DNA of 63,515 nt, counting the filler, from an uncultured virus (IMG/VR IMGVR_UViG_2049941000_000851) (taxonomy: Duplodnaviria > Heunggongvirae > Uroviricota > Caudoviricetes). It is 11 parts of one record of this genome, joined end to end, with 100 filler letters (N's around TTAATTAATTAA, not from the genome) between each part and the next. Parts side by side here need not be neighbours in the genome. Positions count along the whole stretch, not along the records: positions 26,657 to 29,985 come from IMGVR_UViG_2049941000_000851; 10 more parts are not named here. One strand, 5' to 3'. A model generated the notes under the pieces. That model was given only the letters and a program-made list of their open reading frames with translations, was not told the DNA's origin and searched no databases. Position 1 is the first letter of the stretch; every line of letters starts with the position of its first letter. Below, piece after piece: positions 471-31,484 of this stretch. The position numbers were made by a program, and so were the translations under genes.

Positions 471-1025
471 CACTCCGCAGGTACAAACTTCACATCTACC
501 TGCACCTTCTGCCCCGGATACTCCGCCCTCTGATACGGCTTATTCTTCCGGGGTTTTCGCCTCTTGTTCCCTTTCTCTGCTTTCAGTCTGGAGACGATTC
601 TCTTGGACCCGCCGTAACTGCGCCTGTATCCATGCTTCTCCAGCATCTCTTGGTACACCAGTATCAGGTCTTCCCACCGATGCTTCTTCGCCAGCCGCCG
701 GATCTGTTGTATCTCTTCCGGTGTGTGTGCACGCGGCGATCTGTGCGACCGCCGGCTTCTGTCCGTCAGACTTTGCCATGTCCCGTCGTACCGCTTCAGC
801 AACTTGTACAGCGTCTTGCGGCTGATCCCGTACCGTATCGCTGCCTCCGTCACATTCCCGTGCTTTCGATAATACTCCAAAACCCGTTGACGCGCATGCG
901 CCTCTTGTGCTATCCTGTTCATGCAGAGAACCTCCTTCGTGATAGCTTTGGTGTGGTAACCTTATTCTATCACTTGGCTCTCTCTTTTTTTCCTCTACCT
1001 GCTACCTTTCTATGGTACCAAAACA
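471..1025 (-). mobile_element. IS481-like insertion sequence, left end and transposase N-terminus (ORF starts 922, cut by gap)
   Basis: HTH (AAIRYGISRKTLYK), DRSRRSHRSP, start of rve core PGQKVQVDVKFVP; candidate 5'-TGT end at 1025. Confidence 0.7.
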
Positions 1026-1164
1026 GTGAACAGCCCCCTAATATATATCGTTTCTGTTTGCTATTCTCGGATATTTACAATATCGTAATTCTGTACGCGT
1101 AAACAGAGGAATAAACCAACTATATTATCATGGCTGGATTATGTGAGGCTTTTCCAAATTATGC

Positions 1165-3230
1165 TTACTGGGGACCGGGCTGTTCCATCTGGGCGCGTAT
1201 GCTTTTGATCGTCCTGAGCAAAAAGACGATGCTGGCCGCGAGGGACACCACCTCCGCCACCGGGAAGGAGATCCACACGGCGTCCAGGCCCCACAGGCGG
1301 CCAAACAGCCACGCCGCGGGCAGGAGCACCAGCAGCTGGCGGAAGATGGATACCAGCATGGAGTGGGCGGGATTGCCCACTGCCTGGAACACGGAGCCCA
1401 CGATGATGCAGAAGCCCGCCACGGGGAAGGTGGCCGCGATGATGCGCAGGCCAACCCTGCCGATGGAGAGCAGGTCGTCGCTGGCCTGGAACTGCNNNNN
1501 NNNNNNNNNNNNNNNNNNNNNNNNNNNNNNNNNNNNNNNNNNNNNNNNNNNNNNNNNNNNNNNNNNNNNNNNNNNNNNNNNNNNNNNNNNNNNNNNNNNN
1601 NNNNNNNNNNNNNNNNNNNNNNNNNNNNNNNNNNNNNNNNNNNNNNNNNNNNNNNNNNNNNNNNNNNNNNNNNNNNNNNNNNNNNNNNNNNNNNNNNNNN
1701 NNNNNNNNNNNNNNNNNNNNNNNNNNNNNNNNNNNNNNNNNNNNNNNNNNNNNNNNNNNNNNNNNNNNNNNNNNNNNNNNNNNNNNNNNNNNNNNNNNNN
1801 NNNNNNNNNNNNNNNNNNNNNNNNNNNNNNNNNNNNNNNNNNNNNNNNNNNNNNNNNNNNNNNNNNNNNNNNNNNNNNNNNNNNNNNNNNNNNNNNNNNN
1901 NNNNNNNNNNNNNNNNNNNNNNNNNNNNNNNNNNNNNNNNNNNNNNNNNNNNNNNNNNNNNNNNNNNNNNNNNNNNNNNNNNNNNNNNNNNNNNNNNNNN
2001 NNNNNNNNNNNNNNNNNNNNNNNNNNNNNNNNNNNNNNNNNNNNNNNNNNNNNNNNNNNNNNNNNNNNNNNNNNNNNNNNNNNNNNNNNNNNNNNNNNNN
2101 NNNNNNNNNNNNNNNNNNNNNNNNNNNNNNNNNNNNNNNNNNNNNNNNNNNNNNNNNNNNNNNNNNNNNNNNNNNNNNNNNNNNNNNNNNNNNNNNNNNN
2201 NNNNNNNNNNNNNNNNNNNNNNNNNAGCGCCGTAGTTGTAGGAAATAATGGGCACCATGCCGCTGTTCAGGCCGAACACGGGCATGAAGATAAAGGACTG
2301 CAGCTTGTAGTATATGCCGAAAAACGCGGTGGCCGTGTCGGTAAAGGAGATCAGGATCAGGTTCATCAGGTAGTTCATCACCGAGCCCACGCACTGCATG
2401 ATGATGGAGGGCAGGCCGATCTTGTAGATCTGCTTTACCGTGGGGCCGTGCCAGCGCATCTTTTTCACGTCCAGGCGCACTTCCTTCACCTTTGCCAGCA
2501 CGAACACGAGGGCCAGGCCGCCGGCCACGAACTGGCCGGTCACCGTGGCTACCGCGGCGCCCGTGACCTCCAGGGCGGGAATGCCCAGGCTGTCCACGCC
2601 GAAGATGAACACGGGGTCCAGAATGATGTTGGTCACCGCGCCGCACACCTGGCACAGCATGGCCAGGCGGCTGCGGCCCGTGGCCGTGAGCATGCGCTCA
2701 AAGGTGGACTGCAGGAAAAAGCCCATGGAGAAGCACAGGCACACCGTGCAGTAGGAGGTGCCGTAATCGATGATCTTCTGCACGCGGGCTTCTTCGGCAA
2801 GGCGGGCCGCTTCGTCCGCGATGAGGGCCGCCGCCTTCAGGGACGGGCTGTTGATGGAACGGAAATAAAACCCGGAAAACATCAGGCCGATCACCGCGAA
2901 CACCAGGCTGGTGACCACGGACAGGAACACGCCGGTGTTGGCGCTTCTTTCCGCCTCCAGGGGCTGTTTGGCGCCCAGGTAGCGGCTCAGCATGGCGTTG
3001 GTGCCCACCGCCGTGCCGATACCCACGCCGATCATCAGCGTCTGCAGCGGAAATGCCAGGGATACGGCGTTGAGCGCTTCCTGGCTCAGGCGTGAAACGT
3101 ACAGGCTGTCCACCACGTTGTACAGGGCCTGCACCAGCATGGAGATCATCATGGGCAGGGCTGTGGCCATAAGCAGCGGGCCTATGGCGCGGGTGCCCAT
3201 CTCGTCCCGTCTGGCATTTTCCTTTTGCAT
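1165..3230 (-). CDS. MATE family efflux transporter (gapped)
   Basis: ALPMMISMLVQALYNVVDSLYVSRL, NIILDPVFIFG, PIISYNYGA motifs; GGAGG SD before ATG 3230. Confidence 0.9.
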
Positions 3231-3324
3231 ATCTTCCTCCGGAGCAAATGATGGCTGTATGATACACCCAAATTGAAATGTCCGTGAGAATAACAGATTA
3301 ATTATCGCTGACGCNNNNNNNNNN

Positions 3325-3546
3325 ACGACGTCCCTTGCAACGGTACAAGGCTGCCTGGACACCGGCGGTTATGCTGTGGCGAGTATGGGACCACCTTTTT
3401 GGACCTCAGGGGGTCACTTCATATGCATTTGGAAATACGACGGGGATTATATCTACGCAAATGATCCTGCGTCATCTAAACGCACTAAGCAGAAAATAAC
3501 CGATTTCATGAAGCAGCGTAAATGCTTCTTTTGTTTTTGGAGGTAG
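3325..3546 (+). CDS. C39-like peptidase (probable endolysin), C-terminal fragment
   Basis: Reads ASMGPPFWTSGGHFICIWKYDGDYIYANDPAS (GHF...NDP), directly upstream of holin. Confidence 0.65.
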   Translation, partial: TTSLATVQGCLDTGGYAVASMGPPFWTSGGHFICIWKYDGDYIYANDPASSKRTKQKITDFMKQRKCFFCFWR

Positions 3547-3552
3547 TTTTCT

Positions 3553-3978
3553 ATGAGAAACTTTTCTATCGACATCATCTGGGCAAAGATCCAGATCGCA
3601 ATCACCGCGCTGGGCGGCTGGCTCGGCTACTTCCTGGGCGGTATGGACGGCCTGCTGATCGCGCTGCTCGTTTTCGTGATCCTGGACTATGTGACCGGCG
3701 TCATGCGGGCAATAGCGGACCACGAACTGTCCAGTGCCATCGGCTTCAAAGGCATCTGCCGCAAAGTGCTCATTTTCGCGCTGGTGGGCGTGGGGCACGT
3801 GCTGGATACCCACGTAGTAGGCACCGGCTCAGCCCTTCGCTCCGCAGTCATCTGCTTCTACCTGAGCAACGAAGGAGTCAGCTTGTTGGAAAACGCGAGC
3901 CACCTTGGATTGCCAGTGCCGGATAAACTGAAAGCCATTCTCTCACAACTGCATAATAAGCAGGATCAAGACAAGTGA
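3553..3978 (+). CDS. Phage holin (toxin secretion/phage lysis holin family)
   Basis: GGWLGYFLGGMDGLL, LDYVTG, SSAIGFKGICRK, FYLSNEGVSLLEN, GLPVP. Confidence 0.9.
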   Translation: MRNFSIDIIWAKIQIAITALGGWLGYFLGGMDGLLIALLVFVILDYVTGVMRAIADHELSSAIGFKGICRKVLIFALVGVGHVLDTHVVGTGSALRSAVICFYLSNEGVSLLENASHLGLPVPDKLKAILSQLHNKQDQDK

Positions 3979-4651: not shown

Positions 4652-5012
4652 TCAGTCTGATTTCTGCGGCAGTTTGCATGTTCTCTTCATCGCAACCGAA
4701 CAGGCGATGTCACCCAATACATTGCAGCAGGTAGCGCCGGCATCCACCAGTATGTTCACACTCACGTACATGCCCATGATCCCGGCAGGCAAACCGGCTA
4801 TGGCCGCAAGTGCGGCAAAAGAGGCGATCGCGCTGTTTGGCACACCCGGAGCGCCTATGCTCAAAAGCGTATTGCTCAGCAGTACAACAGCAAGCAATCC
4901 ATAGGACAGTTCCGTGCCGGTCGCATTGGCGAAGAAAACCACCATAAACGACATGACGATGGACACCGCATCCATGTTGATCGTAGCGCCGAGCGGCAGT
5001 GCGAGGGAGGAG
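4652..5012 (-). CDS. Dicarboxylate/amino acid:cation symporter, C-terminal fragment
   Basis: PLGATINMD, SIGAPGVP, TCCNVLGD. Confidence 0.8.
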
Positions 5013-5022
5013 NNNNNNNNNN

Positions 5023-5466
5023 GAATCTGAACCAGGCCATAACACAGTCTGACAATTCAAAGCTCAAGCCCATCGAACAGGCGCGCAGATACGTTCACGC
5101 CTTGCTGGACGAAAAGGGGCGCGACGCGGTGCCGCGGTGGGTTGTGCTTTGCAATTTTGAAGAATTCCATATCTACGATCTCGACACACCACGGAATGAA
5201 CCGGTGAAGGTACTGCTGAAAGACCTGCCGGATAAATACTATATGCTGGAATTCCTCGTGAAGAAGAAGACAATCATTCAAGAGGAAGAAGAAATATCCT
5301 TCCAGGCAGGCGCGATCGTGGGCAAGCTGTACGACGCCTTCCTGAAGGAGTACAAAGATCCCACGGACGAGCACAGCTTAAAGAGTCTCAACGCCCTGTG
5401 CGTGCGCCTCGTGTTCTGCCTCTACGCGGAGGACGCGGGCGTATTCGGCGGGCACTTGATGTTCCA
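5023..5466 (+). CDS. MmeI-like type IIL restriction-modification enzyme fragment
   Basis: PRWVVLCNFEEFHIYDLD and LCVRLVFCLYAEDAG. Confidence 0.7.
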
Positions 5467-26656: not shown

Positions 26657-28528
26657 AGCACAGCTCCCGGCAGCCACGGTGGCACTCGTCCCATCTGCTC
26701 ACAGACTGCCTGCAGATCCACACCCTCGCTGGCTTCTATGATCAGCTCATCATGCACATGTCCGCAGATGAAGCAGTGGCTCAGCGTTCGCATGACGTAA
26801 CACAGGATGTCCCTGCTGATTGCTTGAACAATGTTTTCCACAAATTTCGGCCCATAGCTTTCGATTCGTTCCCATTTTTTGGTGGTGCCGACGCCTTCAT
26901 AGGTGACGGATTCCCCGCCGAACTTGTTGATTCCAATCTTCGGTTTCACATAGGCCAACCGCCTGCCGGAGGGCAGGGTGATGAAAAGCATACCGCTTAA
27001 GCAGGTAAAGCGGAGGCCGTGTGTTTCTGTTTCTATCTTTTGCCGGACAGCTTTCTTTACCGATTCATCGACATCCCACCAGAAAGACACAATGTTGGGA
27101 TTGGATTCGCGCCACGCCGTGACCAGCGGCTGAAGTTCCTCCTCCTTCAAGCCCATGTCCAGAGCGCCCATGGCTTTTAAAGCGCCGACACTGCCGCCGT
27201 ATCCACAGTTGTGGACGAGCTTCCCCGATACGGTAAAACGGTGATGTGGTCCGGCATTTCGTATGTCATAAAGTCGAGCCGCGCACTGATGAGCCTCCAG
27301 TTCTTTCTTCTCTCGAGTACTGCCATCTCTGCGTCCCGAATGATCTCGTCTCTGGTCAACCCCTGTGAAAGTTTCCGGACAACAACGTTGCGGACATACG
27401 GCCAGTACTCCTGTGCGAATTCGCTCAGTACTGTATTTCTCCGGTTTGCTTGATTCTGCGCCCTGGTGACAAAGCGGATGTTCCCGGGGGCATAATGACT
27501 GTTCGTATATATCCGATCCAGTTCCAACGCTCTGTCCGGCAACCCGTATCTCCTGATCAGATAAAGTCCCGCTNNNNNNNNNNAGCCTCCGATCCAGCCA
27601 TTTCGGTATCCGCCGGGGCTGTGAACATGCCTGACAGCCTTGAGACTTTCCGCGGGTCAGCAGATCCATGAACTGCCACTGAACAGCGCCGCATCCCGTG
27701 CAGCGAGTCAGCACATAACAGTGATCCCATGTCCGGTTCCAGCGTTTCTCCGGACTGATAATGCTCACCCAGCCGTATTGCCTGCCCACCATTTCCGGTT
27801 TGTAAGAGATGTGCGCCGCTGGCGGCGGCGAATCCAAACTGTACGGGCTCCGATTCCCCCTCAATCCAGATGAAGTGGCCAGGTGTTGCTGTAAGTCCTT
27901 CATATGTGATAACCTCCCGGATTCCATTGTAGACAACGCCTTCATGCTGTACCCACGCTGTACCATCCCATACAAGATCGTCTAACAAAACATCTTCTAT
28001 GGGCTTTTCTCCATGGTTAGTGAGCACAAGTTGGCCTTCGGCAATGCAGGCGAGTTCTGCGATTTTTCCCTTTTGACGAAGATGTCCGTTGACGCCATGC
28101 TTTTCAACCGGAACTTTGAACATTTGACTGGCACTTTGACAGTAGATATCACCGCCACGGGCGAACAAATCTAATCGCCATTGCTCTCCGGCAAGATAAG
28201 CAATCACTCTGGCTTCAATGGCACTGAAGTCGCTGACGATAAACTTGTAACCCGGTTTCGGCACAAACGCCGTCCGGACCAGCTGGCTAAGGGTATCGGG
28301 CACATCCTCATACAGCAACCTGAACATTTCATAGTCGCCGGCCTTGACCAGACTGCGGGCCGCGGCAAGATCGGGAATGTGATTCTGCGGCAAATTCTGC
28401 AACTGCACCAGCCGTCCAGCCCAGCGCCCGGAGCGGTTGGCTCCGTAGAACTGAAACATTCCCCGGCAGCGCCCGTCAGCACAGACGCAATTCTCCATGG
28501 CGATGTACTTCTTCACGCTCGACCGGGC
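26657..28528 (-). CDS. Phage family A DNA polymerase, polymerase domain, intein-containing; N-terminal exonuclease part at 30368-31030
   Basis: FYGANRSGRWAGR, SDFSAIEARV (motif A), RQKGKIAELA/CGYGG (motif B), HVHDE (motif C). Confidence 0.92.
27177..27792 (-). CDS. HNH homing endonuclease in the +1 frame of the intein (start uncertain)
   Basis: MVGRQYGWV...CTGCG...LTRGKSQGCQAC and LELDRIYTNSHYAPGNIRFVTRAQNQANRR. Confidence 0.8.
27208..28048 (-). mobile_element. Intein in polymerase motif B
   Basis: Block A CIAEGQLV, block B TATPGH, blocks F/G LYDIRNAGPHHRFTVSGKLVHN then Cys; removal restores KIAELA-CGYGGSVGAL. Confidence 0.92.
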
Positions 28529-29001
28529 NNNNNNNNNNTGATAGTATCGACAAGCAATTGCAGGATGTACGTCAGCGAATCACTAATTCCACAAAAGTAA
28601 ATAACGCAATTGTCGATGAGCTTTTCAAAACTGCTTACAAGTATGCTGGAGAACTTGATCTTACAAAAGAGAAGCAGTTCCGGGAACTATACCTTTTCAC
28701 AAGCAATCTTAAAGAGCTATCAGGCGCGATCCTTCATAAAACAGTTTTTGCTTTCCGTCTTGCATACATTACTGCGATTGAAAAAGCCATAGGGATTAAA
28801 CTGCCAATTATACTTGATTCTCCGAGTGGGAAAGAGGTTGATCAGAAAAACATAGCAGCGANNNNNNNNNNNNNNNNNNNNNNNNNNNNNNNNNNNNNNN
28901 NNNNNNNNNNNNNNNNNNNNNNNNNNNNNNNNNNNNNNNNNNNNNNNNNNNNNNNNNNNNNNNNNNNNNNNNNNNNNNNNNNNNNNNNNNNNNNNNNNNN
29001 N

Positions 29002-30357
29002 ACGGCTTGAACGTGAGCCCGCCCAAGATTTCGTCGAATCGTTTTCTTCCGAGAAGCGCCTTCATGGCTGTGATGCCGAGTAGCTTCCTTTCATAGGGGT
29101 CTTCGCCTGCTGCTTTCACCGCGGCTGCCGCGGCTTCTTCGTCGGTGTATTTGGTGACGGATCGTCCCTCGACCAACTTGANNNNNNNNNNNNNNNNNNN
29201 NNNNNNNNNNNNNNNNNNNNNNNNNNNNNNNNNNNNNNNNNNNNNNNNNNNNNNNNNNNNNNNNNNNNNNNNNNNNNNNNNNNNNNNNNNNNNNNNNNNN
29301 NNNNNNNNNNNNNNNNNNNNNNNNNNNNNNNNNNNNNNNNNNNNNNNNNNNNNNNNNNNNNNNNNNNNNNNNNNNNNNNNNNNNNNNNNNNNNNNNNNNN
29401 NNNNNNNNNNNNNNCCGTTTCCGGCAGGTAGCTTTGACACTGCAGAACTGACAGTGCTCCCCGGCGCGGAATTCGCCCTCACCTTTGAAGGCTAACTGTG
29501 CTGTTGGTAAAAGAACAGTCTCTGCCCACCCCAGAAGGTCAGCTTTGCTCATTTCGAAGTTGGTTTCATTTTCCCGTCTCGGCTGAAAGATGCTCATCCT
29601 TATTGTGCGGACATCATAGATTCCGTCATAGGCTTCGAGCAGCCCCAGCGCGTAGCACATCATCTGAGGGTTGTGTTCTGCGCTCACCAGAATGCCGACG
29701 CCGTATTTAAGGTCGATCACCTGAAGAACATCGTCCGCCACGATGCAGGCGTCTCCGGTACCGAAACCCTCCGGAACCCAGCGGGAGAAGTCCAGCCGCT
29801 GTTCCACCAGTACGACGGGATCAGCGCAGTGCTTCTTTGCTTCAGCCAGCTGCTCCATTACAAAGGCGCAGTAGGCATCCGTGCAGTCGGCCATCTCCTG
29901 ATCGAAAAANNNNNNNNNNGCGTTCAAGTATGGGCTGACGGTCGGCGTCCACGATTCCAGGCGCGGTGCTGCTGTTGGCGTTGATNNNNNNNNNNNNNNN
30001 NNNNNNNNNNNNNNNNNNNNNNNNNNNNNTTAATTAATTAANNNNNNNNNNNNNNNNNNNNNNNNNNNNNNNNNNNNNNNNNNNNGCTTCCCTGTGTCAG
30101 GCGCTTCCTGTTCATCAGGCGCGAAGCAGACTTGCACATGGGCCACTGCCCGTATCAACTCTTCTCCGCACCTGACCAGTTGTTTTCCTACTTCATTCAG
30201 GTTGTCCAGTGTCGTTGCCAGTTCGCTCATTTTGCTCATGATTTGACTCCTTTCTCTGTTTTTCCAGTTTCCTTGCCAATCGTTTTGCCACTACGCTGAT
30301 TGCTATTAGCACGTCGATCAGCTCCTGCTCTTCGGCAGCTGTATTTGCCGTGTTCTC
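29002..30357 (-). CDS. Fragments of second-copy early genes: DUF2800, DUF2815 and two small hypotheticals
   Basis: Near-duplicates of 36492-37833 and 39059-39415 (EQRLDFS...GFGTGD...IDLKYG). Confidence 0.75.
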
Positions 30358-31484
30358 NNNNNNNNNNATTCGACTTCCATGCCGTGATCGGCAAGCCATT
30401 GTTTCATCTGCGCAACGGAGTTTGGATTCTCCATCTGCGTCAGCCGCTGCATCTCGGCGGAGAGCTCGTCCCGGGATAGATCGTCAAAGGCTATGGCCTG
30501 TCTGACCATCTCCCTGTCCAGTGCGATGCCCCTGTCGTTTATTTCTTCGGACAGATGGTATTCACTCCAAACGGAATCGGGAACAGGAAAGGCGGCCAGC
30601 TTTTTCTGTATNNNNNNNNNNNNNNNNNNNNNNNNNNNNNNNNNNNNNNNNNNNNNNNNNNNNNNCACCTCAACGTCTCGTTTATTATATTCCTTAAAAA
30701 CAGCCCATTTGTCGGGCGCGTGCTCCGGGAGATTCCATGTCCTGCCGCCGTTAGACGCGGTCGGCTTGCATGGCATGCAGAAATATCGGATGAGCGCCTT
30801 ACCCTCTGTCATTTTCTGGTCTTCCAGTTTCAGCACAGCGCCGACGCCCTGAAGCGATAACGGCAGACCCAGATAAGCCGACCACACCATGGAGCAGCGC
30901 CATGATCGCGGATCGAGATAATTGCCCACGGTGTCCTCCGGTATACCGTAACCACGAAACAGATCAGGACAGTGCTTCCCTAGCCACGCAGACAAACAGA
31001 TACGCTCAAATCCCGCATTAAATGCCCATTNNNNNNNNNNAGAAGCGCGGAAGGATTTCGAGGAGGCAGTTTCATCGACCCTGGAACCGATTCCCTTCGG
31101 AAGATACGATCTTGAGCCGTTCCCCGTAGAAGCCCTTCCCGAGGACATGGGAGATTATGTCCAAGCAGTAGCGGAAAGCACACAGACGGCTGTAGACATG
31201 GCGGGGANNNNNNNNNNNNNNNNNNNNNNNNNNNNNNNNNNNNNNNNNNNNNNNNNNNNNNNNNNNNNNNNNNNNNNNNNNNNNNNNNNNNNNNNNNNNN
31301 NNNNNNNNNNNNNNNNNNNNNNNNNNNNNNNNCCTCCGAATATCTACGCGAATATTATCGCGGAGCCTTCCGAGAGAAAATCCGCGGTACTGCACGCTAC
31401 GGCAAGTCCTCTTGACAACTACGAGGTCAACTACAACATTCAGAACGCGGCGCGTGTGGAAAGCTGCAAAATGANNNNNNNNNN

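Follow-up and report, generated by a model that had tools for sequence, protein, structure and literature searches.

An HNH-like open reading frame nested out of frame in a polA motif B intein of an uncultured caudovirus and of related Bacillota prophages

INTRODUCTION

Inteins whose endonuclease is encoded out of step with the intein itself have been described before, and we report here a further case from a stretch of phage DNA. The stretch, called the window below, comprises the whole 63,515 nucleotides (nt) of joined pieces from an uncultured Caudoviricetes virus (IMG/VR record IMGVR_UViG_2049941000_000851), and all positions count along it; the element in question is an insertion in its DNA polymerase gene, polA. 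We consider it probable that this element is an intein in polymerase motif B with a Hint domain only at its two ends (~84 plus 28 codons), and that the ~197 codons between them are an out-of-step HNH-like gene of the free-standing type. The overlap of the two reading frames is real and has been kept by selection across the relatives of the locus.

An earlier reading of the window from its sequence alone (the original prediction) had taken this layout to be without precedent. That part of it fails: out-of-frame and antisense endonucleases in inteins have been published, and the record of phage APSE-1 already annotates a nested gene, P46, within its polymerase gene. For an out-of-frame or antisense endonuclease in an intein, Gorbalenya 1998 is cited in the work on actinobacteriophage inteins considered below and in a preprint on a cyanobacterial dnaX intein (bioRxiv 10.64898/2026.09.14.751524). 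That preprint concerns a LAGLIDADG endonuclease in the +2 frame and uses nonsynonymous-to-synonymous rate ratios (dN/dS) for each frame. The dnaX intein resembles the window locus in that the endonuclease frame is under purifying selection while the intein frame is relaxed, and in that full, mini, and empty alleles coexist. It differs in that its nuclease is LAGLIDADG rather than HNH-like, its host gene is cellular dnaX rather than phage polA, and its offset is +2 rather than +1.

Inteins of actinobacteriophages likewise have, between their Hint blocks, a nuclease open reading frame (ORF) that lies on the same strand but is read in a different frame. Their intein frame is open, its middle lacks recognisable structure, and invasion by a free-standing endonuclease gene has been proposed as their origin, all of which fits the window locus as well. 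Their nuclease, in contrast, is Endo VII-like and lies in "frame 3," and their hosts are the genes for terminase, capsid, thymidylate synthase, and an actinophage DNA polymerase, whereas the window locus occupies polA motif B in Bacillota prophages.

Two further systems share part of the layout. The ShiLan-type HNH insertions in phage DNA methylases (PMC11855218) also hide an HNH ORF in another frame under a stop-free host read-through; they have no detectable splicing domain, whereas the flanks of the window element are a predicted Hint fold with Cys1, His-Asn, and Cys+1. The fractured genes of Dassa et al. (2009), as the accessible part of that paper presents them, also place an endonuclease gene of the free-standing type between Hint halves. 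The host gene in the window is, in contrast, unbroken, and the intein frame is continuous across the intein in the window contigs and in 66/67 loci, so a split intein does not describe it.

The general layout has thus already been published (1998 and 2025-26), and what differs here is the nuclease family, the host gene, and the phage lineage. A limited search of the literature, main texts only, found no published description of an out-of-frame HNH gene in polA or in Jerseyvirus. Two aspects may be new: that a single nuclease family is found at several polA sites and uses either alternative frame, and that codon choice gives evidence for an internal start.

RESULTS

In what follows, intein nt and codon numbers count from the Cys1 codon; frame 0 is the polymerase and intein frame, and +1 and +2 are the other two frames of the same strand. 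The locus lies on the minus strand in two contigs, 27584-28528 and 26657-27573, joined by a gap of 10 N's at 27574-27583. Frame 0 carries the following features (a slash within a motif marks a splice junction).

28049..28528, minus strand: polA N-extein fragment, a family A polymerase up to motif B (...RQKGKIAELA); Pfam DNA_pol_A, E 4e-13; phrog_10285 positions 1-124, E 3.6e-36
27208..28048, minus strand: class-1-type intein, Cys1...His-Asn then Cys+1, from translation; 927 nt including 96 nt under the gap at 27574-27583
27797..28048, minus strand: Hint N-lobe, intein codons 1-84, with a block-B-like motif TATPGH; from the model of relative L043 (per-residue confidence, the predicted local distance difference test [pLDDT], 84-91), Foldseek, and third-position variability
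27292..27796, minus strand: intein-frame linker, codons 85-281, including the gap; pLDDT ~27, frame-0 identity 0.344, stop-free
27208..27291, minus strand: Hint C-lobe, codons 282-309, ending ...ARLYDIRNAGPHHRFTVSGKLVHN; pLDDT 71-83, invariant columns L288-N309
26657..27207, minus strand: polA C-extein fragment, from CGYGG... to the contig end; phrog_10285 positions 122-304, E 4.5e-71

The N-extein fragment is cut off by the contig end at 28528. Translation bore out both junctions where the original prediction had placed them, splitting motif B: at KIAELA/CIAEGQ (then LVLT...) the Cys1 codon begins at 28048, and at ...GKLVHN/CGYGG the last intein codon, for Asn, ends at 27208. The insert has the termini of a class 1 intein, with an N-terminal Cys, a C-terminal His-Asn, and Cys as the first C-extein residue, and C1, H308, and N309 are invariant in 37/37 intein-frame sequences. 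It sits at a conserved site, bordered by phrog_10285 positions 1-124 and 122-304, and intein-free phage polA genes are contiguous across that site; neither contig (27584-28528, 26657-27573) contains a stop in frame 0.

The same DNA read in the +1 frame carries a second set of features.

27177..27903, minus strand: HNH-like endonuclease ORF; PHROG HNH families, +1 identity 0.674, stop codon TAA at 27179-27177
27625..27702, minus strand: four-cysteine cluster C31, C34...C53, C56 (CTGCG...GCQAC); all four Cys invariant in 36/36 relatives
27444..27518, minus strand: HNH-like core motif DRIY-x4-Y-x2-GN-x-RFV-x4-N-x2-N, from the window sequence and the alignment of relatives

Before the gap the +1 frame reads MVGRQYGW...CTGCG...GCQAC, more fully MVGRQYGWVSIISPEKRW...CTGCG...GCQAC...KWLDRR, and after it ...LELDRIYTNSHYAPGNIRFVTRAQNQANRR..., on to the TAA. 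The offset is the same on both contigs, and the +2 frame, a control, has 3 + 3 stops across the same stretch. The ORF comprises ~270 amino acids (aa) if read from the ATG at 27903 or 233 aa from that at 27792, with 32 hidden codons counted, and it crosses the C-side splice junction to end 10 codons into the C-extein. The post-gap piece matches three PHROG families annotated as HNH endonuclease (best phrog_374, E 1.2e-8), and the ORFs of 36/36 relatives match families so annotated (phrog_374, best E 4.4e-27). Conservation of the four Cys points to a zinc-binding Cys4 cluster, with metal binding putative. N133, N142, and N145 are invariant among the relatives, and the window ORF keeps 55/55 of the invariant family residues that are visible in it.

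The frame relation across the gap is fixed by other assemblies. Sequence of the window was recovered in rumen and gut metagenome runs, and two contigs from different studies, one from run X1 and one from run X3, bridge 27573 and 27584 with exactly 96 letters and no indels listed; X1 may be the sample from which the window came. The 10 N's therefore stand for 96 nt, or 32 codons, and the intein measures 465 + 96 + 366 = 927 nt (309 codons), the length found in 47 relatives. The original prediction had described an intein frame open on both sides of the gap, a phage HNH with a zinc-binding part in the +1 frame, an identical offset before and after the gap, and a nuclease ORF running through the C-terminal splice junction to stop at 27177, and each of these points held up.

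The middle of the intein, which had been described as featureless, proved so in structure prediction. For L043, AlphaFold2 modelled the frame-0 intein (37-sequence alignment) with confidence over residues 1-84 and 282-309, but pLDDT falls to ~27 over residues 85-281, where frame-0 identity is also no higher than in the unused frame. All listed Foldseek matches of this model in the PDB are inteins or Hint domains (probability 0.72-1.00; best E 1e-3, at probability 1.00), among them gp41-1, Ssp DnaB, Npu DnaE, Mtu RecA, hedgehog, and BIL domains; the E-values are modest because two-thirds of the model is disordered. The predicted intein is thus a Hint domain into which an unstructured loop of 197 residues is set. 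A model of the +1 ORF has a mean pLDDT of 80.8; it begins with a beta barrel at the N-terminus, contains helices, and forms a strand-strand-helix unit over DRID...GN.RFV...N..N, where DSSP assigns strands to 119-122 and 134-137 and a helix to 139-146.

The layout recurs widely. Comparison with phage genomes by blastn aligned Streptococcus phages Javan101/104/107/113/255 and PhiSdyV1524 and Gardnerella phage vB_Gva_AB1 into the insert. These phages have an annotated "DNA polymerase" coding sequence (CDS) of 960-967 aa with the same layout: a conserved HNH ORF in +1 and an open intein frame with a middle rich in K/R/S/Q. None of the 3 Streptococcus and Gardnerella records examined has an annotated HNH CDS. 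A search for related loci with the 131-aa HNH piece of the window returned 35 viral contigs and 38 genome contigs, the hosts being Bacillota (Megasphaera, Acetobacterium, Allobaculum, Eubacterium plexicaudatum, Acidaminococcus, Succiniclasticum, and many rumen metagenome-assembled genomes); the closest relative is L043, at 82% identity. When six probes derived from the window were used in tblastn, the N-extein, IntN, IntC, and C-extein probes shared one frame in every full-length locus, and both HNH probes lay in the next frame in every one.

Both junctions could be placed in 67 loci, of which 47 have inteins of 927 nt (40 distinct sequences), 2 of 915 nt, and 2 of 930 nt, 15 are mini-inteins of 360-438 nt, and one (L071) is irregular. 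Frame 0 is stop-free in 66/67, as against 4-31 stops in the +2 frame, and in 38/40 distinct 927-nt sequences the HNH ORF reaches at least codon 220 unbroken. Both frames do stay open in homologous polA inteins, a point that the original prediction had set out to have checked. Left out of these counts were 13/80 loci: L008, L011, L012, L013, L050, L060, L070, and L074, where the N- or C-junction match is incomplete; L049, where the N-extein match lies in a frame unlike the rest; and L004-L007, which are too distant and were analysed separately. Two of the irregular loci may be broken copies. In L049 (Eubacterium plexicaudatum ASF492, ~2439-2568) the N-extein match is off-frame with respect to the intein and C-extein, and in L071, counted as the lone exception, IntN and IntC lie in different frames across 806 nt with 1 stop.

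The 40 distinct 927-nt sequences align without gaps, and we used them to ask which frame is under selection, on the basis of entropy periodicity and identity per frame. Per-site entropy peaks at the frame-0 third position over intein nt 0-180 and again over nt 900-927; over nt 180-900 the most variable position is the third position of the +1 frame, so that variability there follows the HNH frame, a check that the original prediction had called for. In the HNH core (nt 256-830), mean pairwise aa identity is 0.344 in frame 0, 0.674 in +1, and 0.341 in +2, the intein frame being no more conserved than the unused +2 frame. In the two flanks both frames are conserved: identities in frames 0, +1, and +2 are 0.70, 0.67, and 0.56 over nt 146-256 and 0.77, 0.76, and 0.67 over nt 830-927.

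Frame 0 is nonetheless kept free of stops. Synonymous shuffles of the HNH core that held the HNH protein and codon usage constant gave an expected 5.3-15 frame-0 stops per sequence (mean 9.5), as against 0 observed in 40/40 of these related sequences (P[0] ≤ 0.0015 for each), while stop counts in the +2 frame agree with the simulation. The visible HNH codons of the window alone gave a mean of 3.8 frame-0 stops on shuffling, with P(0) = 0.0066. The +1 frame is therefore under purifying selection, and the intein frame is relaxed in the overlap but avoids stops. Judged from these alignments, linker codons 85-281 appear to be a frame-0 read-through of the HNH gene, stop-free and without amino-acid constraint.

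Sequence features upstream of the HNH core suggest where translation of the nested ORF may begin.

27913..27918, minus strand: GGGAGG resembling a Shine-Dalgarno sequence, 9 nt upstream of ATG 27903, inside Hint codons R-E-V...T-Y-E
27901-27903, minus strand: candidate start ATG, in Hint codons T-Y-E, 37 codons upstream of ATG 27792
27790..27792, minus strand: second candidate start ATG, exactly at the end of the Hint N-lobe and the start of the conserved core

The ATG homologous to 27903 is found in 38/40 distinct relatives and that homologous to 27792 in 34/40, the other six having ATT (3), ATA, ATC, or CTG; every one of the 40 sequences has at least one of the two. The Glu codon that makes GAGG is GAG in 36 sequences and GAA in 2, against a background of 52 GAG to 151 GAA in the same region, and the Tyr codon that makes the +1 ATG is TAT in 37 and TAC in 3, against 5 TAT to 20 TAC. 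Synonymous codon choice thus seems to build both GAGG and ATG, which is indirect evidence that a ribosome-binding site within the intein has been selected for. With these biases, ATG 27903 is a better candidate than the TTG near 27840 that the original prediction had offered; its other candidate, ATG 27792, stands as the second choice.

Alleles at this site exist in several states. Intein-free alleles are common: of the 20 listed phage polA matches, 11 stop at query position 474-482, the insertion site, and resume directly after it. Eight of the 15 mini-inteins keep pieces of the HNH ORF, and mini-intein L035 is 97% identical to the full intein L009 save for a clean deletion of 489 nt. The HNH fragments mark these mini-inteins as deletion derivatives, not ancestors, which bears on the proposal that a free-standing HNH gene invaded a mini-intein: such an invasion is plausible, but these mini-inteins do not represent the form invaded. 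In L001 (OQ418408.1) and L052, a premature stop affects the HNH frame only (at codon 158 and codon 180, respectively) and the intein frame is open, so that the intein can still be read while the gene nested in it decays. The presence of empty and full alleles beside decaying ones is what would be expected of a homing element.

Joints resembling mini-inteins also occur in single metagenome contigs, one from run X1 that skips 501 nt (27292-27794) and one from X4 that skips 607 nt (27272-27880). Their flanks are shorter than 30 letters, and we did not use them as evidence.

The nuclease family also occurs in more distant phages. With the HNH piece of the window, tblastn found matches in ~145 Salmonella phage records and in EBPR siphovirus 2, every one of them within the gene for the polymerase; four of these records were examined. 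In SETP3 and VT223, a 299-aa intein with 0 frame-0 stops contains a nested 248-aa ORF in +2, at a site (GKA/C) four residues upstream of that in the window. EBPR siphovirus 2 has a 291-aa intein, also with 0 frame-0 stops, and a nested 264-aa ORF in +2, at SELA/C as in the window. These three resemble the window in having a polA motif B intein with an open frame 0 and a related HNH ORF nested out of frame, the SETP3 ORF being homologous to the window family by hhalign (probability 99.4%, E 4.5e-21); unlike in the window, the HNH ORF lies in +2, not +1. In SETP3 (locus L004) the neighbouring helicase is also annotated with a Hint domain (4830-5135), so inteins occur in two replication genes of that phage. 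Salmonella phage SS3e (L005, NC_006940.2) was not used, on account of frame breaks relative to SETP3, which are either old sequencing errors or real frameshifts. Its polymerase region, 532-3632, is annotated as three ORFs (polymerase, HNH endonuclease, polymerase).

The polymerase P45 of APSE-1 (NC_000935.1) is of the polA type and has a Cys...HN/C insert with 0 frame-0 stops (site ...GGKS/C...HN/CENI) and a nested ORF on the same strand in +1, as in the window. This ORF, P46, is annotated "HNH endonuclease," and hhalign relates it by homology to the family of the window (probability 97.2%, E 3.8e-11). In contrast to the window, the insertion site lies further downstream, and P46 has 140 aa and no N-terminal Cys-rich part.

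Several features of the window around the locus are recorded here for completeness. The window consists of joined short contigs with 91 runs of N (7722 N's in total), many of them 10-N scaffold gaps, and eleven linkers of the form N44-TTAATTAATTAA-N44 lie between its scaffolds, so that adjacent pieces are not necessarily neighbours in the organism. Within the polA scaffold, 28539-28861 (323 nt) has a guanine-plus-cytosine (GC) content of 0.39, against 0.53-0.57 for the neighbour pieces; it is part of a plus-strand ORF, 28558-29010, that is unrelated to polA, and it resembles a scaffolding error or a foreign contig. On another scaffold, the ORF at 30318-31148 (minus strand) resembles the exonuclease portion at the N-terminus of a polA of this type (WAFNA.FERICLS, compare L001). 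A further minus-strand ORF, 29091-29927, sits between this ORF and the polA locus, so the scaffold order departs from the phage gene order (DUF2800, DUF2815, polA).

DISCUSSION

The reading we favor is that a Hint intein in polA motif B is interrupted by an HNH-like gene in the +1 frame. Several observations weigh against it. Profile searches of both frames gave a divided answer: PHROG HNH families match the +1 frame, but the Pfam and NCBIfam models match neither frame, with no Hint model matching any intein frame (window pieces, L043, and L047; E up to 1) and no HNH model matching any +1 frame (window pieces and full-length relatives). A sequence search of the PDB with the intein profile gave only weak matches (E ~0.3, including a split-intein protein and an NpuDnaE chain), and one with the HNH profile gave 0 matches at E up to 1. 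The HNH model had no Foldseek match at E 0.001 or better, and its comparison with PacI (3m7k; Z 4.4, root-mean-square deviation 3.2, 74 residues aligned) is within the noise of the tool. Equally within noise are its best hit in a wide VIA-align search, an unrelated axonemal chain (Z 6.1), and the likeness of its N-terminal 50 residues to SH3/Tudor-like barrels (Z ~4). The frame 0 of this copy is known to be open on the visible contigs only, 96 gap letters apart, and none of the 47 full-length relatives has a frame-0 stop in the region matching the gap. The 40 sequences are related, so the shuffle and codon-bias statistics are not independent trials, though the direction and size of the effects are unambiguous.

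Two further points concern the nuclease itself. Arg stands in 36/36 relatives where an HNH motif should have its first His; the core reads D-R-I-(D/N) there, and DR is also found in SETP3, EBPR siphovirus 2, and APSE-1 P46. That this Arg column corresponds to the catalytic His is our own reading of the motif. With an invariant Arg at the presumed catalytic position nuclease chemistry is not assured, and "HNH-like" is used here as a label of apparent homology. In addition, the window ORF has Tyr at family position 124, where 36/36 relatives have Asp or Asn, and the nuclease of this copy may be impaired as a result. The base concerned, at 27509, is A in the window and in run X1 (Tyr124) and C in runs X3 and X7 (Asp).

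It is possible, then, that the nested nuclease of the window copy is already inactive, late in a homing cycle, which would leave the open intein frame as the one part still of consequence to the host gene. The substitution at position 124, where other runs read Asp, would fit this, as would the decay seen elsewhere in the premature stops of L001 and L052, the 8/15 mini-inteins with HNH fragments, and the 489-nt deletion separating L035 from L009. Yet the window ORF is intact where it is visible and keeps every visible invariant residue of the family. We regard inactivity of this copy as unlikely, if by no means far-fetched.

A different account would have ribosomes shift by +1 close to where the Hint N-lobe ends and back before the C-lobe, so that a canonical intein with an in-frame HNH domain is made, or shift once to give an N-extein-IntN-HNH fusion. 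Such programmed frameshifting could draw on the region of nt ~200-256, which is unusually conserved at all codon positions and could hide a recoding signal (entropy 0.76/0.28/0.48 over nt 180-240, with nt identity of 0.79). That conservation, however, is also explained by the constraint on both frames there (aa identities of 0.70 and 0.67). No slippery motif was seen, none having been searched for, and the Shine-Dalgarno-like sequence and ATG are maintained as a pair by synonymous bias. Moreover, with two shifts there would be no need to select for a stop-free frame 0 over ~190 codons, and this is the strongest signal in the data. We find frameshifting very improbable.

It seems just as improbable that the frame-0 middle is a functional, fast-evolving, disordered domain of the intein instead of mere read-through. 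In favor of a function, making the polymerase always entails translating the middle, and no interruption of it is seen. Against a function stand its identity, which is about that of an untranslated frame, its codon periodicity, which is that of +1, and the mini-inteins, which lack the middle and keep an open polA frame.

That the HNH gene is truly in frame and displaced by two compensating indels in a very fragmented draft, where the feature spans a 10-N gap, has a negligible probability, since the +1 offset is present within each contig separately, contigs of two studies agree without indels on a gap that is a multiple of three, the layout recurs in 47 full-length relatives, complete genomes among them, and a stop-free frame 0 would be left unexplained. 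Compensating indels of this kind, and homologs that all carry the HNH gene in frame, had been named in the original prediction as the findings that would overturn it; the bridging contigs list no such indels, and the relatives instead share the out-of-frame layout.

On the reading of a Hint intein with a nested +1 gene, expression of the locus might proceed as follows. Ribosomes translating polA would read straight through in the intein frame, giving an unstructured loop, and the Hint halves would fold around this loop and splice the polymerase. The nuclease would be made separately by internal initiation in +1, the start actually used being most likely ATG 27903 behind GGAGG and alternatively ATG 27792. 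It would then cut intein-less polA alleles, into which the whole element would be copied (homing). Splicing, the start codon used, nuclease activity, and the target site are inferred.

The wider distribution of the family invites a further, tentative idea, to which we give somewhat less than even credence: the HNH family may be a mobile gene in its own right, for which Hint inteins serve as safe harbours, with out-of-frame nesting as a stable, selected end state and not a step toward in-frame fusion. We suggest this because the family occurs in polA inteins at three or more sites (that of the window, that of SETP3 four residues upstream, and that of APSE-1 downstream), because both frames are used (+1 in the window family and APSE-1, +2 in SETP3 and EBPR siphovirus 2), and because in the Bacillota loci a ribosome-binding site and a start codon appear to be written by synonymous choice inside the folded Hint N-lobe.

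In gene calling and curation such a locus is entered as a single long polymerase, and the gene nested in it is overlooked. Many Bacillota prophages together supply 40 distinct 927-nt sequences without gaps, with related cases in SETP3 and APSE-1; they form a clean natural data set that bears on how two proteins share one stretch of DNA, on how a homing endonuclease is expressed from inside an intein, and on the entry of endonucleases into inteins as free-standing genes (the "splicing first" view). For internal initiation, the biased GAG and TAT codons offer a directly testable prediction.

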